From contig JABMSE010000039.1 of the NCBI GenBank assembly GCA_013204645.1, positions 1-48,496 of the forward strand: 48,496 bases of DNA, read 5' to 3'. Source of the DNA: Candidatus Saganbacteria bacterium (GTDB lineage Bacteria; Margulisbacteria; WOR-1; O2-12-FULL-45-9). Under the pieces are notes generated by a model. That model had not been told where the DNA came from. It searched no databases and was given only the letters and a program-made list of their open reading frames with translations. Shown here piece after piece: positions 1 through 20,813 of this stretch; within the stretch, counting starts at the first letter, position 1, and every line of letters begins with the position of its first letter. The position numbers and the translations under genes are program-made.

Positions 1-2
1 GT

Positions 3-1070
3 GAATTAGATACTATAATTGCTCAGGCTCGTTTAGCGGGGGTTGCTATGGCAACAATAACACTTAAACAAAGTCCTGAACTTATTCGCGCCACGCTTGA
101 GACCATGATCTCCTTTCCGGTAGAGGGAGAAGCTCTTGATGAAGCAATAACTCTAACTAGTATTATTGAAATGCTTAAGAGATTACCACAACTACAAGGT
201 AAAAGCTTTGTAGCAGGACCCTACCGCATTGAAATAGTGAATGTTGGCTCAGAAACTCTGCAGCCCTCTTTAAAAATTTATGGGGCAGTAACCGAGCAAA
301 GAACCGTAGTTGTTGAGCGAACTGAAGCATGGGGAGATGGTTTTGAACAGCAAGTTCCAGGCATGAGAGCCCGAATGCGCCGCAGCAATCAACCACTCAC
401 AGCTATAATTGGCGAAAATGGAATAGCCTTGGGTTTTGAACTAAGTCCTGGTGAAAGCCAACTCATAACAGAGTTTAATAATCCTATAAATTTAGGCCGC
501 CTTACACAACAGGCTCGTCGTGGAGAAGCCACAGCCGAAGAACAAGGCGACCTAAGTGCAAATGAACAGATATCAGCAGTAGAAATTAAATATACCTGTA
601 ATAATTTAAATCTGCGACCAATTTTAGTTACGCTTTATGAAGTAGCCGGGGGATATAAACGCATGGCTGCTCTAAGAGAGGCCTTGCGAACACATCGCGA
701 TCCGGCTCTCCTTACCGGCAAACGAATGCAAGTGGGCGATCATAATATAGTGATACAAGGAGCTCATCCCGCCACGATAGAACTCAGACTTGAAAATGTC
801 GAACCTAATAACTATAGAACTAGTGAAACAGCACAAGGATGGCACCTTATCTTTCATTTAGGTAATGAAGGCTTTAATATTTGGCCTGCTTCCGGACCAC
901 CGCCTAATCACAGAAGCTATGAGGATAAAGGACAAAATTTTGGGCCAGAAGTAAATTCAATAATCATGTCCTGGACTATGGAGAGTCAAACATTTGGCAT
1001 TGATCGCAATCACAATCTCAATTTTTCCCCAATTATTAACGCGGTAATTGAAATGCTAGGAAGGGTATAA
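3..1070 (+). CDS. KLIAF-leader array protein 1 (5'-truncated by window edge); two tandem copies of unrecognised module A
   Basis: The frame is open upstream of the ATG at 48 and reads ELDTIIAQARLAGVAM, the RxAG leader motif, so the true start lies before base 1. Two internal units begin GKSFVAGPYRIEI / GKRMQVGDHNIVI and end NLNLRPIL / NLNFSPII. Confidence 0.8.
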   Translation, partial: ELDTIIAQARLAGVAMATITLKQSPELIRATLETMISFPVEGEALDEAITLTSIIEMLKRLPQLQGKSFVAGPYRIEIVNVGSETLQPSLKIYGAVTEQRTVVVERTEAWGDGFEQQVPGMRARMRRSNQPLTAIIGENGIALGFELSPGESQLITEFNNPINLGRLTQQARRGEATAEEQGDLSANEQISAVEIKYTCNNLNLRPILVTLYEVAGGYKRMAALREALRTHRDPALLTGKRMQVGDHNIVIQGAHPATIELRLENVEPNNYRTSETAQGWHLIFHLGNEGFNIWPASGPPPNHRSYEDKGQNFGPEVNSIIMSWTMESQTFGIDRNHNLNFSPIINAVIEMLGRV

Positions 1071-1082
1071 ACAGGAGCACTA

Positions 1083-2099
1083 ATGTTTAAAGCAAAATTA
1101 ATAGCTTTTAATATGCAAATAACTGTGGAAGAGTCAGGGCTTCCTACAATGTACGAATTACTGCTAAAACTTCGGGAGGGGCAAACCCTATCTACAAATG
1201 AGCTAAGATTAGCTGGTCTTCCTTTAGTAAGGAGACAAATTGCTGAACTAATCCAAGGAGGACAATTAGAGGATCTCCTAAGCCAAATAACCCAAAACCT
1301 GCCTCTTATCCTCACCCCGGAACAGGTAGTAAATATGCATGAATGTGGCCGAATGCCAGCGATTGGATCGATGATATTAATCAAAGGTGGGGAATATTTA
1401 GCTGGTTTAGCTGATGTAGACGGGAGACCCAATGACATGGTCCCTCAACGCAGAGTAAAGATTAGTTCTTTTCTTCTTTCACCCTACCCGGTAACCCAAA
1501 GAGAATTTGCTGCTTTTGTAGAAGCTGGTGGATACCAAAACCAAGAATTTTGGAGTGAAGCTGGATGGCGGTTCCAAGAAGATAAACAGCTAACCGGACC
1601 ATCGCTTAGAACCGAATTTTTAGATCCGGATAACCCAGTTACCGGAGTATCCTGGTTCGAAGCCGAAGCTTATCTAAAGTGGGCAGGTCAAAGATTTCCA
1701 ACCGAGCATGAATGGGAATATGCGGCTCGGGCCGGCACATCCGTTAGACTACATATAGGCCAAGATAGAGATCGTGGACCAGTAAGAGTAAACGATGCCA
1801 ATTATCCTCCTAACAACAATGGTTTATTTCATCTGTTGGGCAATGTTCTGGAATGGGTTCGGGATGCGCACGATGATGCTTGGTCCTATTACTCTAGATT
1901 AAGATTTCTGGGCCGCGATAGCGGTCCCCCACTAAATCCCCCAGGACCAGAAGGCCATCAGCGAATCCTTCGCGGAGGGGATTGGAAAGAAACCCATCAC
2001 GAGACCCTGGTCGCAATGCCTTTTAGTTCTTTGGCCAGAACTCGAAATGTATTTGCCGGATTCCGCTCTGCAATGTATTGGAGAGAACCAAATGCTTAA
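1083..2099 (+). CDS. KLIAF-leader array protein 2; FGE-sulfatase (SUMF1/EgtB-type, C-type lectin fold) domain
   Basis: Leader MFKAKLIAFN...ELRLAG. FGE motifs: YPVTQREFAAFVEAGGY, PVTGVSWFEAEAY, PTEHEWEYAARAG, GLFHLLGNVLEWV, ILRGGDW, GFR. RBS AGGAG upstream. Confidence 0.9.
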   Translation: MFKAKLIAFNMQITVEESGLPTMYELLLKLREGQTLSTNELRLAGLPLVRRQIAELIQGGQLEDLLSQITQNLPLILTPEQVVNMHECGRMPAIGSMILIKGGEYLAGLADVDGRPNDMVPQRRVKISSFLLSPYPVTQREFAAFVEAGGYQNQEFWSEAGWRFQEDKQLTGPSLRTEFLDPDNPVTGVSWFEAEAYLKWAGQRFPTEHEWEYAARAGTSVRLHIGQDRDRGPVRVNDANYPPNNNGLFHLLGNVLEWVRDAHDDAWSYYSRLRFLGRDSGPPLNPPGPEGHQRILRGGDWKETHHETLVAMPFSSLARTRNVFAGFRSAMYWREPNA

Positions 2100-3357
2100 A
2101 GCAAAACTTATAGCTTTTAATATTAACGAAAGTATCCGACCAGACCTGCCGGGTCTGGAACAACTTTTAGAAACGGCCGCTAGTGGTCAAGCTATATCAG
2201 TTGAACAAATGAGGAGTGCTGGGATAGCGTTAACCAAGCGAGCACTAGAACCGCTGGCAGCTTCGCCAGAAACTGCAACCACTTTCTTAAGGGAATTAAT
2301 CTATAGCGTAATTGAGCCTGTCCTGGTTTTAGATAGCTCGAATGGAGGACATTTTGGATCAGTAACACAAATCGCTTTTAATCCTGTCGATTCTAATCTT
2401 CTGGCAACGGCTGGTACGGACGGCACAGTAAAGGTAGTCGATATCCAAAGTCAAAGCGTCGTACAATCCTATAATCGAGGATTAGAACCACGGGGTGACT
2501 CTGGTGCTATAAACCTTCGAGGGATCCAATCGGTTATCTGGAGCCCAGATGGGCGCTATCTTATAGTTGAGAACCAAGTTTCAGATTCTACTCCGACTCC
2601 TAACCGAACTATAATTGACACCCACACTCAAGAAATTTTGTTTGAAGGCCTAGATCTAATTGAAGACCTAGATGGACGGCCACCACCACAAGTAGTCCAA
2701 AGAAATGAGCAACATGGATTGACAGCAGAACTCTACAGTTATGGAGAACTCAAATTAGTTGAAACATCTAGTGATGACCTAATTTGGAGCATCAGACTTT
2801 TTTCACTACCAATTCCGGATTCAGCCGTTCTCCATAATATACACAGTCCGGACAGTCTACTTCTTCTTAGGATTACAAGAACCAACGAAAGGGGTAGTTC
2901 TCCTTATTGTTGTAATGCCCAACTAATCACTCGAGACGAAGCGGCTATACGCTCCGTTCCAGTTAAGGAGCCCTCGCTTGTTATGTGGAGCCCAGATTCT
3001 GGCCATGCAGTGGTCGCAGAAAAAGATGGAGAAACCTGGCTCCTTAGCATCGCCGATGAACCTTTCTGTTTAGCTGGAATTGAAGAAGGCACAACTTTCA
3101 CAACTGGTGCTTTTAGAAACGACTTTAGGTTTCTCGCTCTTTCTGGAGCAGATGAAACGATTGGAATATTTAATCTTATTGACCTAAGACTAGCTTTCAC
3201 CCTTGACCAAAATAACGGCGGCCACGCAGCCCGCGTTAATTCCGTTGCCTTTAGCCCAGACAAAAAACAGCTGGTTTCAGCTGACGAAACCGGAGTTATA
3301 AAAGTTTTTAATTTTGATAATATTTTAGATGCCATTATAGGAAAAAAAGATGCTTGA
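2092..3357 (+). CDS. KLIAF-leader array protein 3; WD40-like beta-propeller
   Basis: Start reassigned to ATG 2092 (MLKAKLIAFN), which overlaps the upstream stop by 8 bp. WD40 units GHFGSVTQIAFNP..LLATAGTDGTVKVVD and GHAARVNSVAFSPD..LVSADETGVIKVF. Confidence 0.88.
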   Translation: MLKAKLIAFNINESIRPDLPGLEQLLETAASGQAISVEQMRSAGIALTKRALEPLAASPETATTFLRELIYSVIEPVLVLDSSNGGHFGSVTQIAFNPVDSNLLATAGTDGTVKVVDIQSQSVVQSYNRGLEPRGDSGAINLRGIQSVIWSPDGRYLIVENQVSDSTPTPNRTIIDTHTQEILFEGLDLIEDLDGRPPPQVVQRNEQHGLTAELYSYGELKLVETSSDDLIWSIRLFSLPIPDSAVLHNIHSPDSLLLLRITRTNERGSSPYCCNAQLITRDEAAIRSVPVKEPSLVMWSPDSGHAVVAEKDGETWLLSIADEPFCLAGIEEGTTFTTGAFRNDFRFLALSGADETIGIFNLIDLRLAFTLDQNNGGHAARVNSVAFSPDKKQLVSADETGVIKVFNFDNILDAIIGKKDA

Positions 3358-5032
3358 AAATAAATTAATCGCCTTTAACCTCAACCAAGCCTCAGCAGAG
3401 GCACTGCCAACGCTAGCCCAGTTGGCAGAAAGTGGCAGTGCAACCGCACAAGAATTAAGGTTAGCTGGAGTGGCTATGGTGACGAAAACTTTAGAAACTG
3501 AAATCGAAGGCGGAAGATTGGAGGCTCTTTTTGAAAGACTTATGCCAAAAGAAGAACCCGCAGCACCCCCCACTCCACCCGGGTTAGATGCTTTCAAAGA
3601 AAAGCTCAGGATTTTTCCCATTGAATCATTTCTTGAATCTACTTCCCTCCCTCGAGCCGCTACCTTCTTAGCCGAAGCCGTGGCTTACTTTGAAATTGAA
3701 AAAGAAAATAGAGGGGACCTTCTGGCACTTCTTTCAATATCCTTATCTACACGTCCAGCACAAAGAGGCACCCCAGCAGCTCAGTGGACAAACCGGGCTC
3801 GTGCAGCACGAGGACTCGGAAAAATCGGAGAAGAACTTGCTTTGGAAAATTTAGGCCGAGCTCTGGAAGAAGAAAGGCACGAAAAAGCAAAAATAGCCAT
3901 GCAACTGGCTCAAATTGAAATCTTAAGTAGGCTCTATGAACAAGACGAAAATATTGATGCTTACAATAAAATCACGAATATCCAAACTGAATATCCCAAG
4001 GTTCAAGCAGTTATTGATATGTTTATAGTTAAACATACAGCCCCTACCCTTTCCAAGAATAGTTTACTAACGCAAGCGTTTGGAGGAACCCGCGAGAGCG
4101 CAATACTTTCCAAACTAAGGGAAATTGGAACCGTAGAGGATATTGATGTGATATTAGATATTTTTCCTGTGAATCCCGAGCGGCCAAAGCCAAATGACAT
4201 AATCAGGCGCCCAGGGAGGATTTCATCCTCTGCTCCAGTTTTAGTTATGGCCGCTGAAGCGGTCATGGAAATTTGGTATCGGGAATACGATGGTAATTTT
4301 CCCTATCGAGGATACCTCGAACACGTAGCGCCAAATACGTTACCCATACTTTACGCAGCGCAAGCAAGAATAAAAACAGACAAAGGCACAAAAGCGGATC
4401 TTCCAAAATTAAAAAAACACCTAAGAATTAAGCTTCCTCTTTTGCGAACAGCTGCGGCGAAAGCCATTGCGGCTATTCATGTAAGAGCAGGAAATGTAGG
4501 CGCGCTGCGACGCATGCTTTGGTCATGGCCTTTATCTAATAAATATGAACGCATAGCCGCAGCAGAAGCAATTGGTGAGGTTGGAAACAGAAGGGATGTT
4601 TGGAAATTAAAATTGATGGTTAGAAGCAGAGATGAAGAATTAGTTAGAGCAGCTGCGAGATCATTGGGTAAATTGGGTATGCCAAAAGATCTGCCGAGGG
4701 TGCCCGCCTTCGGCGGACATTTTTTTATTAGAGTTGTAACTCGACTATATTTAAACGACGAACTAACCAAAGAAACCCGCCAAACTCTTTGTGAAGCTGT
4801 TGCCAATATATTTGCTAGAGCCGAGCGAGAAGAGTCTCTTTATCAAATGGCTAGCACAGAGAACAATAGAAATCCACTTGCTGCAAAGGCAGCAACTTAT
4901 GGCCTAGTAAAATATTTTGCTGCCAAAGGCGAACTTGAAGAAAACCTAGATGAAATAATGGGTTTTGATTACGGCATCGCTGCCTTATTGGATCACTTTA
5001 GAGCTGAACAGGGAGACCCGAGTTATGCTTAA
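3350..5032 (+). CDS. KLIAF-leader array protein 4; HEAT/PBS-lyase-like helical repeats
   Basis: Leader MLENKLIAFN...ELRLAG. Repeated units RARAARGLGKIG, LRTAAAKAIAAI, ERIAAAEAIGEVG, VRAAARSLGKLG. Confidence 0.82.
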   Translation: MLENKLIAFNLNQASAEALPTLAQLAESGSATAQELRLAGVAMVTKTLETEIEGGRLEALFERLMPKEEPAAPPTPPGLDAFKEKLRIFPIESFLESTSLPRAATFLAEAVAYFEIEKENRGDLLALLSISLSTRPAQRGTPAAQWTNRARAARGLGKIGEELALENLGRALEEERHEKAKIAMQLAQIEILSRLYEQDENIDAYNKITNIQTEYPKVQAVIDMFIVKHTAPTLSKNSLLTQAFGGTRESAILSKLREIGTVEDIDVILDIFPVNPERPKPNDIIRRPGRISSSAPVLVMAAEAVMEIWYREYDGNFPYRGYLEHVAPNTLPILYAAQARIKTDKGTKADLPKLKKHLRIKLPLLRTAAAKAIAAIHVRAGNVGALRRMLWSWPLSNKYERIAAAEAIGEVGNRRDVWKLKLMVRSRDEELVRAAARSLGKLGMPKDLPRVPAFGGHFFIRVVTRLYLNDELTKETRQTLCEAVANIFARAEREESLYQMASTENNRNPLAAKAATYGLVKYFAAKGELEENLDEIMGFDYGIAALLDHFRAEQGDPSYA

Positions 5033-6287
5033 TTTAAAACTAATAGCATTTAATATGCAAGCCTTAAAAGACGGCGCGGTGCCAACAATAGAAGATCTAT
5101 TAACTCGTGCTAGAGACGGTCAATCAATTGAATTTGGCGAGGTGCGCCAGGCGGGCGTTGCGATAGCTGAACCAACCCTAAAAGCCATAATTACCGCAGG
5201 AGAACTAACAAAACTGCTACACTCTATTCTTTATTCATCAGTTACGCCAGTTTATGTACTCGATCAATCAAACGGCGGTCACAGTAATGAAGGGATCCCG
5301 TGTATAGCCTGGCAACCAGAAGGAAATCTCCTAGCCAGTGCAGGTTTAGATGGTTATCTTAAACTAACTGATGTTTCTGAAAGAAGGGTTGTGCAATCTC
5401 ATGATTTGAGAGCATGGAAGGGATCTGAATTGGAACATAGAGGATTAATATCCGTCAAATGGAGTCCCTGCGGAAAATTTTTGGTCACGGAAAATGAAAC
5501 TTATAACATCCCTCCAGAAATTGATCCAGGGAAAATAGTTGACACCCAAACCCAAACCGTCATTGCAGATGGATTTGAAACAAGCGTTGAAAGTGCTATT
5601 TCTACTACCGCGCGCTTCCCTGACACCTTCCTCAAAGTCACAACTTACTCTGATGGTCGAATAGAAGTGAAAACCACCGCCGGGCAAGCGCTTTTTACTT
5701 TGGGTGATGAAAATAGGTGGGGCGAGCGTGTTACAAGTCACAGATCAAGTCCCGACAAAAATTACGCCCTTTTCAGAACGCGGCCACGAAACGAGGACCC
5801 CTACGTAGCAGTAGTTGCCCTAACAGACAACCGTGGGGAACTTTGGAAATTTGACTCACCATACGACAACTGGATTAATAAATTACTTTGGTCCCCCACA
5901 AGCACCTGGGCAGCCATGATCACAGAAAGAAACACTATCAGCCTATGGAATGTTGAAGCAGGCATTGCCTCTAGGTTTGAAGGAGAAGAAATGGAAGGGG
6001 CCGACCCAGACAAAAAAATAAACACTGCTTCCTGGCACCGAGATGGAAAATACCTAGCTATTGCCATTGGCAACACGATAAAGCTTATTGATGTAGAACA
6101 GCCAAAAACAGTTTACACCCTACATCAGGATAATGGTGGCCATCGTGCTAGAGTGAAATCAATTGCTTTTAGTCCAGACGGAGAACTTTTAGCTTCCTCT
6201 GATAGAAACGGAAAAATAAATGTTTACGCATTTTCAGATATCCTTGAGGCCATAAAACTTGAAGCAGGAGATACAGGTAATGATTAA
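5025..6287 (+). CDS. KLIAF-leader array protein 5; WD40-like beta-propeller
   Basis: Start reassigned to ATG 5025 (MLNLKLIAFN), 8-bp overlap. Units IAWQPEGNLLASAGLDGYLKLTD and GHRARVKSIAFSPDGELLASSDRNGKINVY. Clear paralog of 2092..3357. Confidence 0.88.
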   Translation: MLNLKLIAFNMQALKDGAVPTIEDLLTRARDGQSIEFGEVRQAGVAIAEPTLKAIITAGELTKLLHSILYSSVTPVYVLDQSNGGHSNEGIPCIAWQPEGNLLASAGLDGYLKLTDVSERRVVQSHDLRAWKGSELEHRGLISVKWSPCGKFLVTENETYNIPPEIDPGKIVDTQTQTVIADGFETSVESAISTTARFPDTFLKVTTYSDGRIEVKTTAGQALFTLGDENRWGERVTSHRSSPDKNYALFRTRPRNEDPYVAVVALTDNRGELWKFDSPYDNWINKLLWSPTSTWAAMITERNTISLWNVEAGIASRFEGEEMEGADPDKKINTASWHRDGKYLAIAIGNTIKLIDVEQPKTVYTLHQDNGGHRARVKSIAFSPDGELLASSDRNGKINVYAFSDILEAIKLEAGDTGND

Positions 6288-7014
6288 TTTGAAACTAATA
6301 GCGTTTGATATGAACACCAATCTTGAAGAAGGTGCGCTGCCAAAAGCAAAGGATTTAATTGCCAAACTTGATGAAGGAGAAACCGTCTCGGCAGCTGATG
6401 TGCGGCGGGCTGGTATTGCTATCAGCAACCAGGTACTTGGTCGGCTTGACCGCCAAGCTATCAGAAGCCTCCTCGAAAGCATGTGTCCTAAAATAGATTT
6501 TGATGAACTAATTGAAACTAGCTTTGTTAAGGTAAGAGTAGTTAGTCTGCCCCAAGGTAGAGCAGGTAGCTTCCCTCTTGTTTTAGAAATCTTTAACACC
6601 GTTCGGGAAGACAGAACCATTGACTTTGATGGAGACGGCCACGACTCCATGGGTTTTCCAGATAGTTCACCGGGCACACTCCATCGCGAAAAAGTAACCA
6701 GCGCAGCTTCTCTTACAGTAAAAATTTACAAAGATAGAATCGAATTTTCCTGTAGCAAGATTCCAGGAGCTACCTTTAGCAGACCAGAGCCAGAGGATAG
6801 TATCACTTCTGACCTTGGACAAAGGAAAAGAATTCCCCAAGATGAGTGGACACAAGAAGATCAGGACTATATCGGCGCACCCCTAAACATTACATCCATA
6901 GATGTTTCCTATAAATGCGCTTCTTTGGCTCTAAAAACAATTTTGCAGAGAATAAGCAAATCCCACCCTGATCTGGGACAGATTATTAGAGAACTAGGAT
7001 GGTTAAATGATTAA
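6280..7014 (+). CDS. KLIAF-leader array protein 6; unrecognised C-terminal domain (possibly divergent module A)
   Basis: Start reassigned to ATG 6280 (MINLKLIAFD), AGGAG upstream, 8-bp overlap. The end, IDVSYKCASLALKTIL, resembles protein 1 VEIKYTCNNLNLRPIL. Confidence 0.8.
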   Translation: MINLKLIAFDMNTNLEEGALPKAKDLIAKLDEGETVSAADVRRAGIAISNQVLGRLDRQAIRSLLESMCPKIDFDELIETSFVKVRVVSLPQGRAGSFPLVLEIFNTVREDRTIDFDGDGHDSMGFPDSSPGTLHREKVTSAASLTVKIYKDRIEFSCSKIPGATFSRPEPEDSITSDLGQRKRIPQDEWTQEDQDYIGAPLNITSIDVSYKCASLALKTILQRISKSHPDLGQIIRELGWLND

Positions 7015-7705
7015 ACAAAAATTAATCGCCTTTAATATTAACGAAAGTGTAAGGGATAACCTTCCTACCTTGGAGTCTTTGGTAAGAAGAGCCAAGGAGC
7101 TTGGGGTTGAGGATCTCAGAATAGCTGGAATTCCTTTCACAAAAAGAGCGATTCAAGAACAAATTGACGCTGGAAAAACAAGAGAACTAATCAAAGCACA
7201 TGTTCCAACGCTTAATCCACTGCATTTAATTGAACGCCATTCCGAAAGTCGTCGTGCAATACTAAGTGCACTTCATGGCTTGCCAAATTTCCCTTATGGA
7301 ACTTATAGCATAGACTTTGGAGAAGGTTTTTGGTGTTTTGTAAGGGGAGTTACTGTTTCAAGAGCTCTCTTAAATGAAGGCGCTGCTACAAACAAAGAAG
7401 AAGTACAAGTTGACCTACAACTTGATTTTAAGTTTGATGGCATCGGGATAGCATTTTACACACAAAACACACGACGAGGATCTGGCAAAGCCCCAGGCGA
7501 CAGCCATTATGCTTTGGGCCCATTTACTTTTGCACCAACCTCTACCAGTGTTGGTTTAATGTGGAAGGCATCTGAAACCGGCACCGAGCTATCTGATCTA
7601 AAAGTCTACGAATATACACTTGCTGATTTTGATTTACAACAGGTTATGCGAGCAGTGGCTCAAAGAGTAAACGAAGCAATAACAAGGATAGTGGGAAATG
7701 CTTAA
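7007..7705 (+). CDS. KLIAF-leader array protein 7; module A-like domain
   Basis: MIKQKLIAFN...DLRIAG. The C-terminal FAPTSTSVGLMW...YTLADFDLQQVM matches the module A pattern. Confidence 0.82.
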   Translation: MIKQKLIAFNINESVRDNLPTLESLVRRAKELGVEDLRIAGIPFTKRAIQEQIDAGKTRELIKAHVPTLNPLHLIERHSESRRAILSALHGLPNFPYGTYSIDFGEGFWCFVRGVTVSRALLNEGAATNKEEVQVDLQLDFKFDGIGIAFYTQNTRRGSGKAPGDSHYALGPFTFAPTSTSVGLMWKASETGTELSDLKVYEYTLADFDLQQVMRAVAQRVNEAITRIVGNA

Positions 7706-8870
7706 AGCAAAACTTATAGCCTTTAACATAGAAGCCGCTGCAGCCGAGAAATTGACCTCGCCGGCTGATCTGCTTTTGCAAATGGATCAAGGAGAAGACC
7801 CTTCTTTTGAAAAGCTGCGTCAAGCAGGGGTAGCAATATCGCAGCAGGTATTGAGTCGCCCGGAAACAAAAGAGCTGACCCAAAAAGTGTTGGAATCCCT
7901 CTGTAACGGAAGAGTAGAAGAAATTAGAAAACTAGTAGATTATCTTATTTCAAAACTTGAACCCGCTCAAGGACAACAGCTATCAGCTCGGCTCACCTCC
8001 CCCATAGAAAACAACTTAGTTGAAAATCTTGCGCAAAATCAAATTAGCTCGCTAAATGATATTAAACAACTGCTTGATTACCTGGTCTCTCCTCAAAGGA
8101 ATCGTTCAGTTAACCAAGCTAGCCAAATGCTCCCTAGTCGCGCACAACGATCCACCAATCTATTTACGCTAAGAGACAGTGGCCGTGTAATATCCTACGA
8201 ATTGCGCCTTAGAGGAAGACGAGAACCCGGTAGCGCTGTTCTCAGCCCTTCCTTCATTGAGGTGTGTAGCGAATATTTGCTAATTGAGGATCCAACCCAG
8301 ATCGGAGCCAACCCAACAATACTATTTGATTATGAAGTTGAGGAAATAGAAACTAGATTGCCTTTTTGGCAACTTATAGAACGGATTAATGACAGAAATT
8401 ACGCTGACATTTCTAGATTCCTCAGACATTTTTTCACAAGCGGGCCACATACCGTTATTATTAATGATCCCTTAAGAAATAATTTTAGGCTGAGAATTGA
8501 CGAGGTTGCAGTTACCAAAATATACGAGGGGGATTCTGATGGAAGCCTAACTGGTTCTACTTCGACAGAAGCAGCTTCTTCCCAAAGCACTTGTTCTCTT
8601 GAGGCTCAGATCGACCAAGAAGGTATTATTCTAGTCTTTTCTTTTGATCCAACCACTACCCGAAATGTACGTTATAGCCAAGCTGAAGAAGTTCTTGCTC
8701 CCAATAATGAAAGTGTGTCAATGGAATGGACAGCAAGCGAGAAACTGCCCACCCCTCCGGACGAACCACAACGCTATGCTTATTATAAATACATATTAAC
8801 TGATTTCAATTTAGCCCAAATTATGCGTGACTTTGTTACCAACGTCGCGCAGAAGCTTGCGGAAGGATAA
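7698..8870 (+). CDS. KLIAF-leader array protein 8; module B + module A
   Basis: MLKAKLIAFN...KLRQAG. The middle ISSLNDIKQLLDYL..FTLRDSG resembles protein 12. The C-terminal SGPHTVIIND..APNNESVSMEW..YILTDFNLAQIM is module A. Confidence 0.82.
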   Translation: MLKAKLIAFNIEAAAAEKLTSPADLLLQMDQGEDPSFEKLRQAGVAISQQVLSRPETKELTQKVLESLCNGRVEEIRKLVDYLISKLEPAQGQQLSARLTSPIENNLVENLAQNQISSLNDIKQLLDYLVSPQRNRSVNQASQMLPSRAQRSTNLFTLRDSGRVISYELRLRGRREPGSAVLSPSFIEVCSEYLLIEDPTQIGANPTILFDYEVEEIETRLPFWQLIERINDRNYADISRFLRHFFTSGPHTVIINDPLRNNFRLRIDEVAVTKIYEGDSDGSLTGSTSTEAASSQSTCSLEAQIDQEGIILVFSFDPTTTRNVRYSQAEEVLAPNNESVSMEWTASEKLPTPPDEPQRYAYYKYILTDFNLAQIMRDFVTNVAQKLAEG

Positions 8871-8879
8871 AGGGAAAAC

Positions 8880-9620
8880 ATGTTTAATTTTAAATTAATA
8901 GCCTTTAATATTGACCAAAGCCAGCTAGAGAAGCTTCCCACCCTCGCCTCTTTGTTGGCAGATTACGATGCTGATAGAGATGTTTCTGTTGATGACCTAA
9001 GGTTAGCTGGAGTGCCGGTTGCAAAACCGTCTTTTGCACGAGATCCAGACATCATTTTCGAAGCTATTCGCTCAGTTCTGCAGAAACAAGAAAAAGCTGC
9101 CCAGCTTGCTGAAATAAAAATCAAAGTCGCGATAAGAGTAGCTAAGGCAAAACTACCTGCTCTTTATCTTCAAAAACCAATGGAACCAAGATTGCTTTGG
9201 GATTTTGTTCAACTATTAAACAATCCGCAAAATCTTGCTGGAAAAGAAATTTCAGCTGGTTCTCTCACCCTAAAAATAACCCAGGCAACAAAAGAAGCTT
9301 TCTCTTTTCATATCCAGGGAGCGGAAATAGTTTGTCAGGGGGGGCAATATAGTTGGCAAGTGTTTGGAACCATCACAGAAAATGGAATACGAGTTACAAC
9401 AAACCCCATAACAAGCGATCGAAACCTGGGTCTCCCTTTCCCTAAAACCCGAGATTTTGATCCCAACGAAAACGCTGCAACAATATCTTGGAGAGAAACT
9501 CCTTTTGCTAGCTCACAAAGAGAACGAACGATTGGCCCAATTAATCTTCGAGCAATTTGTGAAACCTTGATCGAGCGTTTTATTGAGGAAGGGGTAGAAA
9601 TAGGAGTCTTCAATGATTAA
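8880..9620 (+). CDS. KLIAF-leader array protein 9; module A
   Basis: MFNFKLIAFN...DLRLAG; LWDFV..GKEISAGSLTLKI..TITENGI..FDPNENAATISW..INLRAI. Confidence 0.82.
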   Translation: MFNFKLIAFNIDQSQLEKLPTLASLLADYDADRDVSVDDLRLAGVPVAKPSFARDPDIIFEAIRSVLQKQEKAAQLAEIKIKVAIRVAKAKLPALYLQKPMEPRLLWDFVQLLNNPQNLAGKEISAGSLTLKITQATKEAFSFHIQGAEIVCQGGQYSWQVFGTITENGIRVTTNPITSDRNLGLPFPKTRDFDPNENAATISWRETPFASSQRERTIGPINLRAICETLIERFIEEGVEIGVFND

Positions 9621-10254
9621 AGCAAAATTAATAGCATTTGATATGAATCAAACCAAGGCAGCAGAGTTGCCAACAGTGGAAACATTACTGACACACCTAG
9701 GCGATTTAACCCCTCAAGCAGTGCGCTTGGCTGGATTTCCCTTAACCATTCAAGCCATTGACCAAGCAATTGAAAGCGGTCAAATTGAAGCCTTCCTAAA
9801 AACCGATCTTGTAAGTGGTCGGAAACTTTGGTATACAATCCAACACCTTTCAGACCCATCGTCATTGAAAGATAAAACATTCAGAGTTGGACCATATACT
9901 GTAAGTATCACCAACCCCAATCCCTCACAGTTTACTTTTAAAATTGAAGGTATCCCAATTAGACGGGGCCTTCAAGTTACTGTCGTGGATGTTGGCTCCT
10001 CTCCTTCTGTTCTTGTCGATACCACCTACACCGTATCAGCTACCATCCGTGAAACGGGCGTAGAATTTCTTCTTCCCTCTCAATTAGAGGCAGAACATAT
10101 TTATGATCCAAACGAGGAAAATATAAGATGGGAGTGGGAAGAGGAAAACCCTTTCCGTGACTCAGAAAACCAGCCTAGTTGTGCAAAGCATAAATATATG
10201 CTTAGTGGCTTTAATCTGCGCATCATTATTGAGGAACTTATAAGGCAAATATAA
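9613..10254 (+). CDS. KLIAF-leader array protein 10; module A
   Basis: MIKAKLIAFD...VRLAGF; LWYTI..KTFRVGPYTVSI..IRETGV..YDPNEENIRWEW..GFNLRIIIEELI. Confidence 0.85.
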   Translation: MIKAKLIAFDMNQTKAAELPTVETLLTHLGDLTPQAVRLAGFPLTIQAIDQAIESGQIEAFLKTDLVSGRKLWYTIQHLSDPSSLKDKTFRVGPYTVSITNPNPSQFTFKIEGIPIRRGLQVTVVDVGSSPSVLVDTTYTVSATIRETGVEFLLPSQLEAEHIYDPNEENIRWEWEEENPFRDSENQPSCAKHKYMLSGFNLRIIIEELIRQI

Positions 10255-10255
10255 A

Positions 10256-10966
10256 ATGTTTTTAGCAAAACTTATAGCATTTGAGACAAATGAAGCTAAA
10301 GTAGCACAATTGCCAACCGTGGAAACATTGTTGGCAAATTTGGGTGATTTAACCACTGAAGCAGTACGCCTGGCAGGATTCCCTCTAACTCTTCAAGCTA
10401 TTGACCAAGCAATTAAAAGTGGTCAAATTGAAACTATCCTCAAAACTAATCACGTAAGTGCTCAAAAACTCTGGGAGGTAATTCATCAAATAACTGATAC
10501 GTCTCCCTCCTCACCATTTCGAGAGATGACTTTTAAAGTCGGCCCTTATAGCGTAAAAATCAAAGATCCGGATCCGTATAATTTTACTTTACACGTTGTG
10601 CCCCCTAGCCCTACCGTAACAGTTATCCAAGACAGCTCTCCCGCCGAGGCACTTTCAACCGTAGAACACTTTCCATGGAGATTATCAGTTAAGGTTTTTG
10701 AAACTGGCGTAAAACTTGATCTAGTGGGGAAACCATTTGACACCACAGAAATGGGTTTCACAGAAGAAGCGCTAAGAGGATTAGTAAATCCAAGAAGTAG
10801 CTCTATTAATCTTCGCTGGAGACTCTTTAGATCTCGACTAAAAGACCCGTTTACTGGAACAGAAAGAAAACATCCACTGGAGACCATACATCTCGTCGAA
10901 AACTTTAATCTGCGCGAAATCATTGGAGAGTTGATCCAGCAAATTGAGGAACAAGAAGATGCTTAA
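10256..10966 (+). CDS. KLIAF-leader array protein 11; module A; close paralog of protein 10
   Basis: MFLAKLIAFE...LPTVETLL.LGDLT..AVRLAGFPLT.QAIDQAI.SGQIE is nearly identical to protein 10. Confidence 0.85.
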   Translation: MFLAKLIAFETNEAKVAQLPTVETLLANLGDLTTEAVRLAGFPLTLQAIDQAIKSGQIETILKTNHVSAQKLWEVIHQITDTSPSSPFREMTFKVGPYSVKIKDPDPYNFTLHVVPPSPTVTVIQDSSPAEALSTVEHFPWRLSVKVFETGVKLDLVGKPFDTTEMGFTEEALRGLVNPRSSSINLRWRLFRSRLKDPFTGTERKHPLETIHLVENFNLREIIGELIQQIEEQEDA

Positions 10967-11570
10967 GTTAAAACTCATTGCCTTTAATATCCGAGAAAGC
11001 TATGTTGAAGGAGAAATCGCTAACGTTGAAGAACTTATTTTGCGAGCGCAAAGCCACGCTGAAGTAACCACAGAGGATGTAAGATTAGCCGGCGTTCCAG
11101 CTGTAAAACGCCATATTGATGAGGCCATAAGCCAAGGAACTATTGTTAAATTCCTTACTCCCTTTCTTCCGCCGAAAAAAGACCCCAAAGCAATTGAAAC
11201 TTTAATGAAAGAAGTAATTTCATCTTTCAGCGAGGGCCCAAAAAGACTACACCTCTCAAAATATGTGGGACGAGGAGCCTTTAGATTTGCGGCTTTTAGC
11301 CAATTAGGCATTGGCTCGCGACAAGATCTCAAGCAAATCGCAAATTTTTTAACCGATGGACGCCTGCTAGCCCTAGCGCGAGATCCGCAAACCGCTAGCT
11401 TTACTCTTCCTGTTTCCGGCTACTTTGTGCGCTTTGAGGCTGAATCAATTCACGTTCGTATATCAGGCGCTGATCTCATGAATGGCGCAGCTCCATTTAT
11501 AAAAATTGAAACTCTAAAGGTTGAAAATGGCGGGGAAACGGTTGATTTGTTTGTAGATCATCCAGAGTAG
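10959..11570 (+). CDS. KLIAF-leader array protein 12 (last); module B
   Basis: Start reassigned to ATG 10959 (MLKLKLIAFN), 8-bp overlap; DVRLAGVP; IGSRQDLKQIANFL..FTLPVSG. Confidence 0.82.
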   Translation: MLKLKLIAFNIRESYVEGEIANVEELILRAQSHAEVTTEDVRLAGVPAVKRHIDEAISQGTIVKFLTPFLPPKKDPKAIETLMKEVISSFSEGPKRLHLSKYVGRGAFRFAAFSQLGIGSRQDLKQIANFLTDGRLLALARDPQTASFTLPVSGYFVRFEAESIHVRISGADLMNGAAPFIKIETLKVENGGETVDLFVDHPE

Positions 11571-11688: not shown

Positions 11689-12273
11689 CTAATTCATAAT
11701 GGCTTTTCTTAAGCTCTTTGAGCTACCATCGTTCCTGATAACCCTATCCGCCATTGCTAGATATTCCTTTTGCGGCATTTGGGAACTAATCCGTTTTTGG
11801 GCAGAAGTTTTCGACGAGCCCTTTTTTAGTAGCCGTTTTAATCTCTTTTCTTTAGATGCCATAACCACCCAAACCTCATCCACATAATCTACCAAGCCAA
11901 TCTCACTAAGCACCGCTGCATTTATCACAATCAACTTACTACTTACTACTAACAACTTACAACTTTCTATAATCGCCTCCCTCAACCTCGGATGAACGAT
12001 GCCATTCAATTGCAAGAGCTTCTTTTCATCAGAAAAAACAATCTTAGCTAATTTCTGGCGATTGATTTTGCCTCCGCGCATCAAGATCTTGGAACCAAAG
12101 GCTTTTACGATCTCTCGCCACACCGGGGTTTGGGGGTTATATAATGTATGCGCAACTTGATCGGCATCAATCACAGCTGCCCCTTGTTTTTGCAATATCT
12201 TGGCTACGCTGTCCTTACCTGAAGCAATGGGACCGGTTAAGCCGATAATTTTGTATGGTTGGTCATTCATCAT
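11689..12273 (-). CDS. coaE: Dephospho-CoA kinase
   Basis: IIGLTGPIASGK P-loop, IDADQVAH, INRQKLAKIVF, LNGIVHP, SQMPQ..ADRVIRNDG. Confidence 0.95.
   Translation of the reverse strand: MMNDQPYKIIGLTGPIASGKDSVAKILQKQGAAVIDADQVAHTLYNPQTPVWREIVKAFGSKILMRGGKINRQKLAKIVFSDEKKLLQLNGIVHPRLREAIIESCKLLVVSSKLIVINAAVLSEIGLVDYVDEVWVVMASKEKRLKRLLKKGSSKTSAQKRISSQMPQKEYLAMADRVIRNDGSSKSLRKAIMN
11932..11966. repeat. Five imperfect 7-bp tandem repeats inside coaE
   Basis: caactta ctactta ctactaa caactta caacttt, encoding ESCKLLVVSSKL on the minus strand. Confidence 0.8.
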
Positions 12274-12285
12274 TGGTTGTTAGGA

Positions 12286-12294
12286 ATTATAGCA
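12286..12294 (-). promoter_or_regulatory. Extended -10 promoter for coaE
   Basis: The minus strand reads TGCTATAAT, 12 nt upstream of the coaE ATG. Confidence 0.6.
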
Positions 12295-12314
12295 TAAAAG
12301 ACAAACGCCTATTA

Positions 12315-12462
12315 GGAGGTTTAAATATGTTTTTGCAAACCGTCTCGGAGGCCGAGCGGGCACGGATCCCGCCGAAGGCGGGAGAGCGAGGCCGAGAGCG
12401 AGCGCCAAAATCCTCGCAGGGGATTTTGAGCGCGTGTTTGCAAAAATATTATTTAAACCTCC
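12315..12462. mobile_element. ~148-bp MITE/REP-like element with ~26-bp terminal inverted repeats
   Basis: GGAGGTTTAAATATGTTTTTGCAAAC (12315-12340) pairs with GTTTGCAAAAATATTATTTAAACCTCC (12436-12462). The GC-rich interior has hairpins TCCCGCC-GAA-GGCGGGA and CAAAATCC..GGATTTTG. Confidence 0.6.
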
Positions 12463-12477
12463 GTAAAATCCTCCCCC

Positions 12478-12506
12478 TTGACAAATCCCCCAGAGTAAAA
12501 TAGAAT
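12478..12506 (+). promoter_or_regulatory. Sigma70-type promoter, probably giving a leaderless mRNA
   Basis: TTGACA (12478-83), 17-nt spacer, TAGAAT (12501-06). The ATG at 12514 is 7 nt downstream and there is no Shine-Dalgarno. Confidence 0.7.
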
Positions 12507-12513
12507 TCAAATA

Positions 12514-14460
12514 ATGCGATTTGCAAAACATTTAATCGCAACTTGTATTTTGTGCTTTTGTGCTCTTGTGTTCTTATGTCCTTCCCTCACCTCGGCAGCT
12601 GACCTTGATTTTCCCTATGCTGGTGTCCAAATCAAACTTCCCCCACAAGAGGACCCCTTCCCAGGCATAGGCAATTACTACAGTACCCTTTCAAAAGGCA
12701 TGGAAACTGCTCTCTGGAACCCAGCTTCCCTAGCTAAGCTTTCTCTCTCGGAAGCGTCTATTTCAACCTTAGGGCCGCTTGAAAGGTACACTTATAACCG
12801 AAGCTTTGAAATAGCTGAAACAAGCGGTGATCTTATGCTTGATGGCGGAACAACTGCTGCCGGTGAATATGGTATATTTTATCGATCACCCGCTGCTATC
12901 GGAAGTGGAATCAACACCAAAGAAGTAGAAGTAATGACCCATTCAAATTTTGCCACTGAAGGCACCGGAGTTAATTTTAACTCGGCCTTAAGAGTCAATG
13001 AATGGATCACAATTGGCTTTGCTGCAACCAGCCCGCTTGCCGCTGATATGGCCGCATCAGGGGATTTTCCTTTAACTGTCCGGTCCGATATCGATTTTCG
13101 CGGGCAATCAACCCCGGACATGGAAATAACCAATGCTGGAAAACTAAAATACACCTATGATGTAGGTCCCACAATCGTAACCTATGAAAGCACGGGAACT
13201 GTTTGGACGGGTTTTCTTTCCCAGGAGGCTACTATTCCTTCCACCACCTACGGAGAATTTAGGAATAATGTAAACATTGAAAGCCCCTACATGGGAAGCA
13301 TTGCATCAAAAATCGGCAAATTATCCCTCGGGGTTAATATGATTCCTATTTCTGCCACCGCTAATATTGATAATGACTTACAAGTAGCGGTTAATTCTGA
13401 TGCTGATGATATTATTCTTTACTTCCCAAATTTTGACCCAACCAACGAACTAGAGATCGTAAACTGGGTGAATGATCCTAACCAATACGGCACCTCAGCA
13501 GGATATTCAGAGAAACAATTCAATGTCCATGAAGGCGAAATCTTAGGGACTGCCAGATATACCGGCTATTACACGGCCAGCACCACCCGCTTCGATATTG
13601 GCTCAATGTATGACATTACAGACTGGCTTACGGTGGGGGTGGTTTTTGAAAACTTCGGAGGAGCATCCCTTAATATGAAGGGAAACGGGATATCTACTTT
13701 CATAAATTATCGAGATGTCAATACCAGTGAGGTGGACCAACTACAAAACTTAATTGACCCGGGAGGCCTGACAGAAATTGACCTCTTGGCAGACGAATGG
13801 ATAACTACTGACGAGGTAAACAGCATTAAACTTTTGCTTGAACCAGAAAAGAATTATCCTCTCCCCAAAAGGATCCGCTACGGCATAGCGCTTAAAAAAC
13901 CTTGGTTGATTGCCATTGATTTTGAGCAAAACACCAACCCGATTTCTTTTGTAGCAACGATAAATAATGTGGAAGAAACAATTACGGTTAGCAATATCAA
14001 TTTCGTGCGAATTGGCGGGGAAACCCAAATCTTTAGGCTGCCCGCTTGGTTTCGCGGAGGCACCACCCTTATGCTTAAACCAGAAATTACTGGGTTGGAT
14101 GCTGACACCCAAAACACGGTAAACAACGCCTTCCGATACGGGGCTTTGCCAATAAAACTGGATTTGGGTCTGGATATGAATTTCTGGGGGACTCTGATTG
14201 GAAACTCCCTGGGAATAAATGCACAATCTATAATCAGCGTTTTACAGGTTGATGTCACCAACATGGACTTAACTAAAATGATTTACAGCAATTTCTACGT
14301 GGCGCGGGGCCCCTGGCAGATATCCTGGCTCATTTCGGCTGATCCCTTAGCTTCGGCCGCAGCTTATGGCTCAAGGACACCACCTCCGGGTCAGAAAAAG
14401 GAGATAGAATTAAGTGATCTCAAATATGTTCAAACTTTTGGGGTAACCTATAAATTCTAA
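12514..14460 (+). CDS. Predicted outer-membrane beta-barrel protein (PorV/FadL-like features)
   Basis: N-terminal signal peptide, ALWNPASLA motif, amphipathic beta segments (DWLTVGVVFEN, RIRYGIA) and C-terminal GVTYKF with an aromatic end typical of BAM substrates. Confidence 0.6.
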   Translation: MRFAKHLIATCILCFCALVFLCPSLTSAADLDFPYAGVQIKLPPQEDPFPGIGNYYSTLSKGMETALWNPASLAKLSLSEASISTLGPLERYTYNRSFEIAETSGDLMLDGGTTAAGEYGIFYRSPAAIGSGINTKEVEVMTHSNFATEGTGVNFNSALRVNEWITIGFAATSPLAADMAASGDFPLTVRSDIDFRGQSTPDMEITNAGKLKYTYDVGPTIVTYESTGTVWTGFLSQEATIPSTTYGEFRNNVNIESPYMGSIASKIGKLSLGVNMIPISATANIDNDLQVAVNSDADDIILYFPNFDPTNELEIVNWVNDPNQYGTSAGYSEKQFNVHEGEILGTARYTGYYTASTTRFDIGSMYDITDWLTVGVVFENFGGASLNMKGNGISTFINYRDVNTSEVDQLQNLIDPGGLTEIDLLADEWITTDEVNSIKLLLEPEKNYPLPKRIRYGIALKKPWLIAIDFEQNTNPISFVATINNVEETITVSNINFVRIGGETQIFRLPAWFRGGTTLMLKPEITGLDADTQNTVNNAFRYGALPIKLDLGLDMNFWGTLIGNSLGINAQSIISVLQVDVTNMDLTKMIYSNFYVARGPWQISWLISADPLASAAAYGSRTPPPGQKKEIELSDLKYVQTFGVTYKF

Positions 14461-14465
14461 ATACA

Positions 14466-15320: not shown

Positions 15321-15325
15321 ATAAT

Positions 15326-19457: not shown

Positions 19458-19459
19458 AG

Positions 19460-20032
19460 CTAAATCCTTATCCAGTCTTTTATTTTCCTAAATTTGCCGT
19501 CGCCCACCCCGTCTACTTTCATAATATCCTCAACTGCATAAAAGGGACCATTGTCTTGGCGATAGGCAATAATTCTTTTGGCTGTAACTGGGCCTATCCC
19601 TGAAATAGTACATAATTCTTTTTCTGTGGCAGAATTTATATTAATTTTTTTGCTGCCGATTTCGCGATCACCTAATAGCTCACTTGTCACAAACCCTTTC
19701 TTTTGCAATACTGGAACACAAATCTTCTGGCCATCATTAAGTTTTACTGCCAGATTAAGGGATGAAAGGTCAGCTAAGCCGCTGGTGCCTCCGGCAAGCT
19801 CTAATAAATCAACCAACCGATCCCCCGGCAGAAGCTTATAAACCCCCTCCCTATTAACCGCTCCCACCAAATGCACCAGGATTTCTTCCCTAGAAATAGG
19901 CTTTGGCTCTTCAATTATAATTTCTCCTTTATCAGAAAAATTGCGATAGGCCATAACCGCTAAGCCAGATAGAATAACTAGAACTAAGCCCAGAAGTATC
20001 AGTTGTTGTTGCCGCGTTAAATCAGACAGCAT
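19460..20032 (-). CDS. comEA: Competence DNA-binding protein ComEA (SLBB + HhH)
   Basis: N-terminal TM, VHLVGAVNREGVY, LNLA.KLNDG, ININSAT.KEL..ISGIGPVTAKRII.YR..GPF, VDGVG. Confidence 0.93.
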   Translation of the reverse strand: MLSDLTRQQQLILLGLVLVILSGLAVMAYRNFSDKGEIIIEEPKPISREEILVHLVGAVNREGVYKLLPGDRLVDLLELAGGTSGLADLSSLNLAVKLNDGQKICVPVLQKKGFVTSELLGDREIGSKKININSATEKELCTISGIGPVTAKRIIAYRQDNGPFYAVEDIMKVDGVGDGKFRKIKDWIRI

Positions 20033-20038
20033 ATAAGA

Positions 20039-20047
20039 AGAGTAGCA
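20039..20047 (-). promoter_or_regulatory. Extended -10 promoter for comEA-comEC (leaderless)
   Basis: Minus strand TGCTACTCT, 6 nt, then ATG; no SD. Confidence 0.5.
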
Positions 20048-20165
20048 AGGTTATTACCAGGAATGCGAATAATCCGAATAAAATCGAATCCCGCTAATTT
20101 TCGGTATAAAGATAGGAAAAAACGACATTGGACCTCGGACGTTGGACGGATGGGATTCCCTAGGG

Positions 20166-20187: not shown

Positions 20188-20195
20188 TGTGTTAG

Positions 20196-20807: not shown

Positions 20808-20813
20808 AAAATA

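Follow-up and report, generated by a model that had tools for sequence, protein, structure and literature searches.

The window analysed here is the whole of a 48,496-nucleotide contig (JABMSE010000039.1; contig C27) from the genome assembly of a Candidatus Saganbacteria bacterium (GCA_013204645.1; genome G000), and its left end is occupied by an array of genes whose products begin with a shared domain of ~65 amino acids (aa), which we call the leader, and continue into cargo modules of several kinds. An earlier reading of the window from its letters alone (the sequence-only reading) had noticed the array and taken the leader for an export, packaging, or docking domain. We found that the leader defines a new domain family, that it is carried on binding-module cargos, and that it is co-inherited and often co-located with a locus encoding a Clp-type ATPase. 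We propose, tentatively, that the leader is a docking domain through which binding proteins join a cytoplasmic unfoldase/peptidase machine, as its receptors or as its clients; we regard this as plausible, if a little short of probable.

The array consists of 11 complete open reading frames (ORFs) and one ORF cut at its 5' end, all on the + strand between positions 3 and 11570 of the window and each with the leader, as first described; the cut falls in gene 1, at the left end of both the window and the contig. We placed the start of the leader at the ATG four codons upstream of the K of the motif KLIAF, which occupies residues 5–9 in 11/11 complete proteins. Residues M1, K5, L6, I7, A8, F9, L26, R42, A44, and G45 are invariant in the alignment of the 11 leaders, and the cut ORF shows the second motif, RxAG, as ARLAGVAM. 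Across the genome the invariant core is narrower (M1, K5, I7, R42, and G45), L6 and F9 are kept in at least 90% of members, and residue 8 alternates between A and S (by eye in the alignments). A profile built from the 11 leaders recovered them at E-values of 1e-22 to 5e-27, so their similarity is far beyond chance. The Leu codons of KLIAF are TTA, CTT, CTA, or CTC, the Ile codons ATA, ATC, or ATT, and the Ala codons GCT, GCC, GCA, or GCG; the Arg of RxAG is encoded by AGA, AGG, CGC, CGG, or CGT. Pairwise identity of the KLIAF codons is 0.95 at positions 1 and 2 and 0.64 at position 3, and this synonymous variation indicates that selection acts on the peptide, as the sequence-only reading had argued.

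That reading did not recognize the leader as a named family, and neither did the libraries that we searched. Whole-protein scans at E ≤ 1 gave no Pfam or NCBIfam family for the leader, which matched no enzyme family in the Pfam scan, and when 42 leaders were scanned alone against Pfam at E ≤ 10, no family was matched by more than one member. In PADLOC the leader had no match, and 9 of the 10 proteins scanned gave nothing at E < 0.001; the sole match at this threshold was to a HEAT repeat (E 1.6e-5). An AlphaFold2 model of the leader (72 aa, with a 42-row paralogue alignment as input; pLDDT 82.7) has residues 1–10 extended, followed by five helices (11–18, 23–31, 38–43, 50–59, and 62–71), and places RxAG in the turn that joins helix 3 to helix 4. 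The structure prediction that had been suggested as a check thus yielded a fold and no relative for it: neither the Protein Data Bank (PDB; best E 7.3) nor a viral fold library (best E 2.8) contained a match. We conclude that the leader is a previously unclassified domain, modelled as an extended M-x3-K-L-I-A/S-F peptide and a five-helix bundle with an RxAG turn. A leader of the Nif11-like or ribosomally synthesized and post-translationally modified peptide (RiPP) type was considered and dropped because neither Pfam nor NCBIfam showed a family of this kind, with whole proteins at E ≤ 1 or with leaders alone at E ≤ 10. In one repetitive foreign protein of 2,171 aa (P0048), seven stretches match the centre of the leader profile, 'xAGVPxxxxxI' (E 1.9e-8), and the helix-turn-helix unit around RxAG may occur as a tandem repeat in other proteins.

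Over its first 45 residues the leader has a mean maximum 15-residue Kyte-Doolittle hydropathy of 0.71 and is charged or polar after F9; transmembrane-like stretches occur in 3/43 members, always within the cargo. The mean net charge of the leader is −1.4, and it is net positive in 6/42. The lack of a hydrophobic core and the slight acidity argue against a Sec-type signal, in keeping with the earlier statement that Sec, Tat, and lipoprotein signals are missing, and against a DNA-binding domain. The latter would make the leader proteins one-component regulators with variable C-terminal sensors, which is the commonest layout of a constant N-terminus and a variable C-terminus in bacteria, and the leaders did give matches to helix-turn-helix-like families, HTH_39 (E 0.12) and AbiEi_4 (E 0.22), each in 1/42. 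We nevertheless consider this explanation very improbable: no helix-turn-helix family recurs across the 42 leaders, the fold has no match, the mean net charge is negative, and 43 regulators in tandem operon-like arrays in a genome of this size (1.78 Mb) would be unprecedented.

The leader HMM (hidden Markov model) search that had been suggested was run over the genome and over a protein library. G000 (1.78 Mb in 160 contigs, 94% complete, class Saganbacteria) has 45 places that match the leader profile made from the first alignment (11 + 34 further, E ≤ 0.01) and 47 that match the profile from a fuller alignment. An iterated HMM search over all open frames gave 43 full leader genes, which encode 15,894 aa and take up 2.68% of the genome DNA; of the other four matches, one is the cut first ORF, two are contig-end stubs, and one is a 25-codon stub. 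In every G000 member the leader match begins at the inferred start codon or close to it. Co-oriented arrays are found on C27 (12 genes), C24 (8), C47 (5), C152 (5), and C91 (2), and the other genes are singletons among housekeeping genes. On C91 the 25-codon stub (10475–10549), which ends in a stop, would be a third leader gene, and it is followed by ~240 nucleotides (nt) without a long ORF to the contig end. A secretin gene (PF00263, E 5.1e-42; C47 314–1567) lies 1.8 kb upstream of the five-gene array of C47, from which it is separated by two opposite-strand ORFs (housekeeping by eye); no secretin is found near the other arrays, and we read its presence here as coincidence.

Among 1.84 billion representative proteins, 90 matched the leader at E ≤ 0.001 (33 from G000 itself, 2 near-identical to its own, and 55 foreign), and in 81/90 the best matched stretch starts at residue 1–11. 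Some foreign members are labelled 'SUMF1/EgtB/PvdO family nonheme iron enzyme' or 'hypothetical protein' by NCBI and come from a Candidatus Saganbacteria metagenome-assembled genome that corresponds to G144, of the same class as G000. The leader is present in 4/146 species genomes of the phylum (Margulisbacteria), all in one class (G000 with 47 copies, G144 with at least 40, G141 with 15, and G040 with 3). These four span three taxonomic families; the leader was absent from the other 15 genomes of G000's family and from 15/15 of the sister family.

The sequence-only reading had expected the cognate machinery to lie outside the window, and a candidate is encoded by a four-gene locus on contig C91. 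This locus encodes P1 (268 aa), a giant ATPase (2,015 aa), P3 (112 aa), and a protein with an HExxH motif (473 aa), and is followed by two leader genes. The order P1, giant ATPase, P3, HExxH is kept in G000, G040, and G141, and a contig of G144 that covers the end of the ATPase gene, P3, and HExxH shows the same order; the orthologues have similar sizes (P1 ~250 aa, ATPase 1,841–2,015 aa, P3 ~110 aa, and HExxH ~470 aa). Leader genes come directly after the HExxH gene, often overlapping it, in G000, G040, and G144, the last with 11 in a row. When metagenomes were scanned with the HExxH orthologues, five loci were recovered: those of G141 and G040 again, and three new ones (L088, L089, and L092). 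Leader genes directly follow HExxH in L088 and L089, and L092 ends before its downstream gene, so that leader genes adjoin HExxH in 5/6 loci with a visible downstream gene.

The locus and the leader also share a phyletic pattern. The C-terminal extension of the ATPase (searched as its unique 1,016 aa) was found in 4/146 genomes of the phylum. These are the four leader genomes, and neither the extension nor the leader was found in the 15 further genomes searched from G000's family. The HExxH family is present in 71/146 genomes of the phylum, and orthologues of 50–60% identity occur only in the four leader genomes. The co-occurrence is based on these four genomes in three families and on the three metagenome loci. 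The shared pattern and the adjacency to HExxH make the locus a candidate partner machine for the leader family. The sequence-only reading had said that it would fall if the leader matched a characterized Pfam domain of unrelated role, or if its homologues were scattered single-copy genes with constant C-termini and no linked machinery; we found no characterized Pfam match, variable C-termini, and linked machinery.

Residues 91–595 of the ATPase match ClpC (E 2.3e-68), and solved HSP101 chains are among its relatives. Pfam places AAA_2 (E 2e-37) and ClpB_D2-small in it, it has two Walker A motifs, and the aromatic residue of the D2 pore loop and a DEFEK stretch, read as Walker B, are kept in 3/3 orthologues. 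It therefore has the double AAA+ modules, the pore-loop aromatic, and the D2-small domain of a Clp/Hsp100 unfoldase, and from its similarity to Clp proteins and the kept motifs we take it to be, in all probability, a threading motor that is active. The alignment shows the D1 region directly after a short N-terminal peptide, which presumably leaves no space for the usual adaptor-binding Clp N-domain. The ~1,400-aa extension gave no family match, and neither did P1 or P3.

In the HExxH protein, H234, E235, H238, E270, and D274 are invariant in 10/10 sequences, down to 22% identity, and its fold was modelled with good scores (pLDDT 87.8, pTM 0.85). Neither Pfam nor the sequences in the PDB gave a match to it, and the ESM Atlas gave none that was usable; from the motif we guess that it may be a zinc metallopeptidase. 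No consistent transmembrane segment was found in the ATPase, P3, or the HExxH protein, and P1 has one weakly hydrophobic stretch in 2/3 orthologues. The lack of transmembrane segments in the first three, and of a signal peptide in the leader, suggests that the system is cytoplasmic.

The loci show further variation around these genes. In G144 two tandem P1 paralogues lie upstream of the giant ATPase (L084, C33 1513–2905). The next-best matches to the HExxH protein, at 28–29% identity, are in G024 and G009, two genomes of the same class, where a divergent HExxH gene follows a gene for a ~100-aa protein and the end of a gene for a large protein (L071 391–2955 and L072 1405–3838, respectively); small toxin-antitoxin-like ORFs are inserted between these genes, and no leader family was detected. 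These may be loci of a related system without leaders. In other classes (L073–L076), distant HExxH homologues of 550–590 aa, often in tandem, adjoin an mreB-like gene (by eye), and the short loci around them show no giant ATPase. The core locus of G040 also abuts an mreB-like gene (L066 4002–5045), and a link between the HExxH or core locus and cell-shape genes is possible.

On the reading that we favour, the leader would be a constant docking or recognition module that couples diverse soluble binding proteins to a dedicated cytoplasmic machine, composed of the giant ClpC/ClpB-type double AAA+ unfoldase and the putative HExxH peptidase with P1 and P3. The leader proteins would then be interchangeable receptors that deliver bound targets to the unfoldase/peptidase. 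Alternatively, they would themselves be clients of the machine, engaged through the exposed KLIAF peptide.

Several observations weigh against this proposal. Sequence cannot tell an adaptor from a client, and the physical docking is something that we infer. The co-occurrence comes from four genomes, two of them in one family, and kin are not independent. In G141 the core locus has no adjoining leader gene and the 15 copies are scattered, and in G000 most leader copies are remote from the core, with housekeeping genes as neighbours. The HExxH protein also has distant homologues in 67 further genomes of the phylum, none of which has the leader, so this protein does not need the leader; moreover, its model matches no known zincin (Foldseek against PDB, best E 0.13, TM-score below 0.2). 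Finally, profile comparison with hhalign found no full leader domain in the ATPase, P1, P3, or the HExxH protein; the best alignment covered 11 columns of the N-terminus of the ATPase (E 0.018, probability 2.6%), and the positive control gave E 2.5e-26. The ATPase of G040 does have an exact KLISFN at its N-terminus, just before the D1 ring, but this peptide is clear in 1/4 ATPases, and the ML(K/R) at the start of the other three is too short for a match to be claimed. The start of the G000 ATPase gene overlaps the stop of P1 in the same way as at the array junctions described below, and the overlap may impose its ML(K/R). We therefore treat KLISFN on the ATPase as a lead, not a result. Predictions of a complex between the leader and the HExxH protein scored 0.81, 0.01, and 0.01 in runs without controls and were used neither for nor against the proposal.

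The same machine could serve secretion, injection, or packaging, with the leader as the targeting tag, the Hsp100-type ATPase unfolding the proteins, and the HExxH protein removing the leader. A constant N-terminus on variable cargo and a linked unfolding ATPase with a possible peptidase are what such a system would have. In Plasmodium, HSP101, an Hsp100 protein, drives the export (PTEX/PEXEL) of proteins with a short N-terminal motif that is trimmed by a protease, and solved HSP101 chains are among the relatives of our ATPase; the weakly hydrophobic stretch of P1 could be added to these points, as could the presence of leucine-rich repeat (LRR), WD40, and HEAT modules in secreted effectors of host-associated bacteria. 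We think export improbable even so. The ATPase, P3, and the HExxH protein offer no consistent transmembrane segment or channel candidate, and the leader lacks a hydrophobic signal and is predicted to be a folded bundle. In the 94%-complete G000 we found no matches to contractile sheath or type VI secretion families (sheath and VipB; PF04984 and PF05943, with positive controls), to encapsulin (PF04454), or to the bacterial microcompartment (BMC) shell (PF00936). FlhA (PF00771) is present in G000 and in 40/41 relatives, whereas the leader is present in 2/41, although leader proteins may still use this gate. No toxin or enzyme cargo appeared in our scans. The secretion, injection, and compartment versions of the sequence-only reading thus find no support here.

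If the HExxH protein is a peptidase, the leader might instead be a cleavable pro-domain that keeps the cargo inactive or marks its maturation, with HExxH cutting, for example, near RxAG and the ATPase assisting. In 5/6 loci translational coupling connects the HExxH gene with leader genes, the motif itself is invariant, as are the E and D that lie downstream of it, and RxAG is the most conserved internal motif of the leader, all of which would fit. We give this explanation little weight, because the model puts RxAG in a turn of the folded bundle, between the helices at 38–43 and 50–59, and not in a linker; because binding-module cargos have no obvious need for activation; and because homologues of the HExxH protein are common in leaderless genomes and its modelled fold matches no known peptidase.

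The genes of the array and their cargos are as follows, by position in the window.

3–1070, + strand: gene 1, 5'-truncated; second half of the leader (with ARLAGVAM; leader profile positions 34–69, E 4.1e-4) and a cargo without a Pfam family that pairs in BLAST with the cargo of gene 6 (6280).

1083–2099, + strand: gene 2; leader (E 5.1e-27) and an FGE-sulfatase domain of the C-type-lectin fold (PF03781, E 3.8e-42).

2092–3357, + strand: gene 3; leader and WD40 beta-propeller (Pfam E 4e-16); 8-nt overlap with gene 2.

3350–5032, + strand: gene 4; leader and HEAT-like repeats (HEAT_2, E 4.3e-10), a cargo class of 12.

5025–6287, + strand: gene 5; leader and WD40 beta-propeller (Pfam E 8.3e-22).

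6280–7014, + strand: gene 6; leader and a cargo related to that of gene 1, with no Pfam family at the cut-off.

7007–7705, + strand: gene 7; leader and the ~140-aa class C module, of unmatched fold; no Pfam families.

7698–8870, + strand: gene 8; leader, a stretch of ~160–170 aa (by eye from the alignment; absent in shorter members), and then the class C module.

8880–9620, + strand: gene 9; leader and class C module; no Pfam families.

9613–10254, + strand: gene 10; leader and class C module; no Pfam families and no ESM Atlas match.

10256–10966, + strand: gene 11; leader and class C module; 47% identity to gene 10.

10959–11570, + strand: gene 12, the end of the array; leader (E 8.6e-27) and a singleton cargo with no family at the cut-off.

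Pfam thus agrees with the cargos that had been named from the letters (one FGE, two WD40, and HEAT). The cargos that had gone unrecognized are not all unrelated: five window genes (7007, 7698, 8880, 9613, and 10256) share the class C module, for which the gene 10 protein had no usable match in the ESM Atlas, and gene 1 and the gene at 6280 share a second module. All-against-all BLAST of 44 G000 cargos (the 43 and that of the cut gene 1) gave 12 HEAT-like, 11 FGE-like, 9 class C, and 3 WD40 cargos, two pairs, and 5 singletons; these class sizes rest on BLAST clustering, and the Pfam scan, which covered 20/43 own members, supports representatives of the HEAT-like, FGE-like, and WD40 classes. We also scanned 47 foreign members, leaving out 8 without a clean N-terminal leader match, and found FGE-sulfatase cargo in 9/47, WD40 in 4/47, and LRR_6 in 3/47. 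No toxin or enzyme family besides the FGE type was seen in the 20 own members or among the 25 listed of the 58 families in the 47 foreign members, which leaves the earlier term 'effector' unsupported. As for the FGE type, the closest solved relative of the gene 2 domain is EgtB (E 8.7e-23). True formylglycine-generating enzymes have a catalytic cysteine pair after an RGG motif; the gene 2 protein has no cysteine in the stretch aligned after 'RGG' and by this mark is not such an enzyme. Judged by their domains, the cargos are binding modules, and the ligand-binding repertoire that had been suspected is borne out to that extent.

In a tree of the 43 leaders, which is built on 75 columns only and is weak, the leader tracks the cargo class: 9 changes of class are needed, where the minimum would be 3 and shuffling gave a mean of 18.4 (0/200 shuffles as low). 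In one clade of window-type leaders (SH-aLRT 91) the cargos are of the FGE, WD40, HEAT, and class C kinds. The comparison indicates that whole-gene duplication was dominant and that some cargo was exchanged. The paralogues are old, with at most 84% nucleotide identity (blastn, all members against the genome), and the genome has no match to reverse transcriptase (PF00078); recent amplification or a diversity-generating retroelement (DGR) is thus not the explanation. DGR diversification was rejected on the further ground that only diverged paralogues, and no short A-biased repeat pair, were found.

These cargos invite comparison with the effector-associated domains (EADs; EAD1–10) of NTP-dependent conflict systems, which are described by Kaur et al. 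(2020; PMC7159879) as small, non-enzymatic, mostly all-alpha domains, fused to variable partners and often found in neighbouring genes. According to the same text they reach up to 22 copies per genome, their effectors include FGE-type lectin domains and repeat proteins, and the system cores include VMAP of vWA-MoxR systems, iSTAND, Ubl, and GAP1. The leader could by analogy be a homotypic adaptor of an immune or conflict system, in which leader copies bind one another and assemble WD40, HEAT, LRR, and lectin-like modules, as sensors or neutralizers, around an NTPase core that reacts to invaders. Its small, all-alpha fold, its 43–47 copies, the similar cargo types, the patchy distribution over three families, and the linked NTPase core all fit, yet we consider this unlikely. 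With hhalign no copy of the leader domain was found on a core component, although such a copy is the hallmark of EADs; PADLOC gave nothing at E < 0.001 for 9/10 proteins, the exception being the HEAT-repeat match; no enzymatic or toxic effector domain was found in the scans made; no reverse transcriptase that could diversify the lectin domains was found; and the paralogues are old.

Consecutive genes of the array overlap by 8 nt (ATGNTTAA or ATGCTTGA) at 8/10 internal junctions (2092–2099, 3350–3357, 5025–5032, 6280–6287, 7007–7014, 7698–7705, 9613–9620, and 10959–10966). At these junctions the upstream stop codon falls within codons 2–3 of the next gene, which restricts leader residue 3 to K, N, or E. 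The overlaps indicate translational coupling, and they leave no space for immunity genes between the array genes.

The array may continue beyond the contig. C24, with its eight-gene array, stops 30 codons into a leader (C24 9609–9700), and the window resumes at approximately the corresponding residue (1–110), so that the window array may be a continuation of that of C24, as the reading frame alone suggests; a comparison of the array contigs, this pair included, revealed no exact overlap of their ends. The left ends of contigs C148 and C92 share 22–28 identical nt with many other contig ends, which points to a short dispersed repeat that broke the assembly. Contigs from two DNA runs of one freshwater study tile the array and give no joints; the study is possibly the source of the genome, in which case the runs are not independent. 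One contig from run X2 tracks the window to base 1114, in the leader of gene 2, and continues with ~255 letters that are unlike it, the first of which resemble the same part of the leader in the foreign protein P0009. It may represent a variant or recombinant paralogue of the gene 2 region in the population.

On the 3' side of the array, window positions 11689–26955 are ordinary chromosome. The genes there encode dephospho-CoA kinase, a FlgD_ig-domain protein, a protein with three SLH domains, ComEC, ComEA, an SLT transglycosylase, and PNPase, as well as Wza/Wzz-type polysaccharide export proteins and a 648-aa protein that matches no family and has a hydrophobic segment near its N-terminus.

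The libraries searched gave no family or fold assignment for the leader, P1, P3, the HExxH protein, the class C module, or the extension of the ATPase, yet these parts make up a conserved, co-inherited gene system that fills nearly 3% of a small genome. We found no description of a KLIAF/KLISF leader family among the literature matches listed, judged by title and start of abstract, and none of ClpC-linked WD40 adaptor paralogues; the main text of the Saganbacteria genome paper (PMC6349859) does not mention WD40, sulfatase, paralog, Clp, HEAT, or secretion, and its supplements could hold gene tables. The annotation 'SUMF1/EgtB/PvdO family nonheme iron enzyme' misses the defining domain of these proteins. 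The system offers a testable function for a large share of the 'hypothetical' genes in Saganbacteria, an uncultured sibling lineage of Cyanobacteria. If the leader does dock on a Clp-type motor, the family would exceed in size every adaptor repertoire known for a bacterial AAA+ machine and would represent a modular-receptor route to targeted unfolding or degradation, so far considered a eukaryotic strategy. A more specific version, to which we assign a low probability, is that one Hsp100 unfoldase and the HExxH peptidase are programmed by dozens of receptors to destroy, for example, phage or other invader proteins, with a logic like that of F-box proteins. The WD40, LRR, HEAT, lectin-fold, or class C module of each receptor would capture a different target, and the patchy spread over several families and the expansions (47 and at least 40 copies) would reflect an arms race.

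Among known systems, the substrates of type III secretion and flagellar export, contractile injection systems, polymorphic toxins, and encapsulin or BMC compartments likewise have a constant terminal tag on variable cargo. Their machineries were either not found here or are universal and uncorrelated with the leader, and the leader tag is a predicted folded domain. From polymorphic toxins the leader proteins differ further in having no toxin cargo or immunity-gene pattern (20/43 own members and 25 listed of 58 foreign families). FtsH-type proteins are AAA+ zinc proteases and so, like our locus, combine an AAA+ unfoldase with HExxH; here, however, the two are encoded by separate genes, no transmembrane anchor was found, the ATPase is of the two-ring Clp type, and the HExxH fold is unmatched.

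The known adaptors of Clp/Hsp100 proteins, such as MecA and McsB for ClpC, SspB for ClpX, and ClpS for ClpA, dock on the motor and bind a client. The layout that we propose is the same, and the linked ATPase is closest to ClpC. The known adaptors are unrelated to the leader in sequence and number one or a few per genome, whereas here there are up to 47 paralogues with repeat-type binding modules, and the linked ATPase bears a ~1,400-aa extension and has its D1 region directly after a short N-terminal peptide. F-box proteins, in which a short helical N-terminal docking domain precedes WD40 or LRR C-termini, feed targets to the eukaryotic SCF ubiquitin ligases. They provide an analogy, as a large paralogous family with a constant docking domain and WD40, LRR, or other binding modules, but they have no sequence or fold relation to the leader, there is no ubiquitin system, and the link to degradation is one that we infer.

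There is also a likeness to the EADs of PMC7159879: in both cases a small, all-alpha, non-enzymatic terminal domain is joined to varied partners, among them FGE-type and repeat domains. The leader has five predicted helices and no enzyme family, and it occurs in 43 full copies on 11 cargo groups, adjacent to the core in 5/6 loci. No Pfam family recurs in the 42 leaders at E ≤ 10, a result that bears on membership in the EADs only as far as the copy of Pfam used covers them. The leader differs in being on no core component, the nearest approach being the KLISFN peptide of ~10 aa on the G040 ATPase. Its 43–47 copies are about twice the record of 22 quoted there, the partners seen are only binding modules, and its core is of the Clp/Hsp100 type. 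Within the libraries and literature searched, the system is thus undescribed in its particulars; its kind is that of an adaptor-type domain that couples variable modules to an NTPase core.

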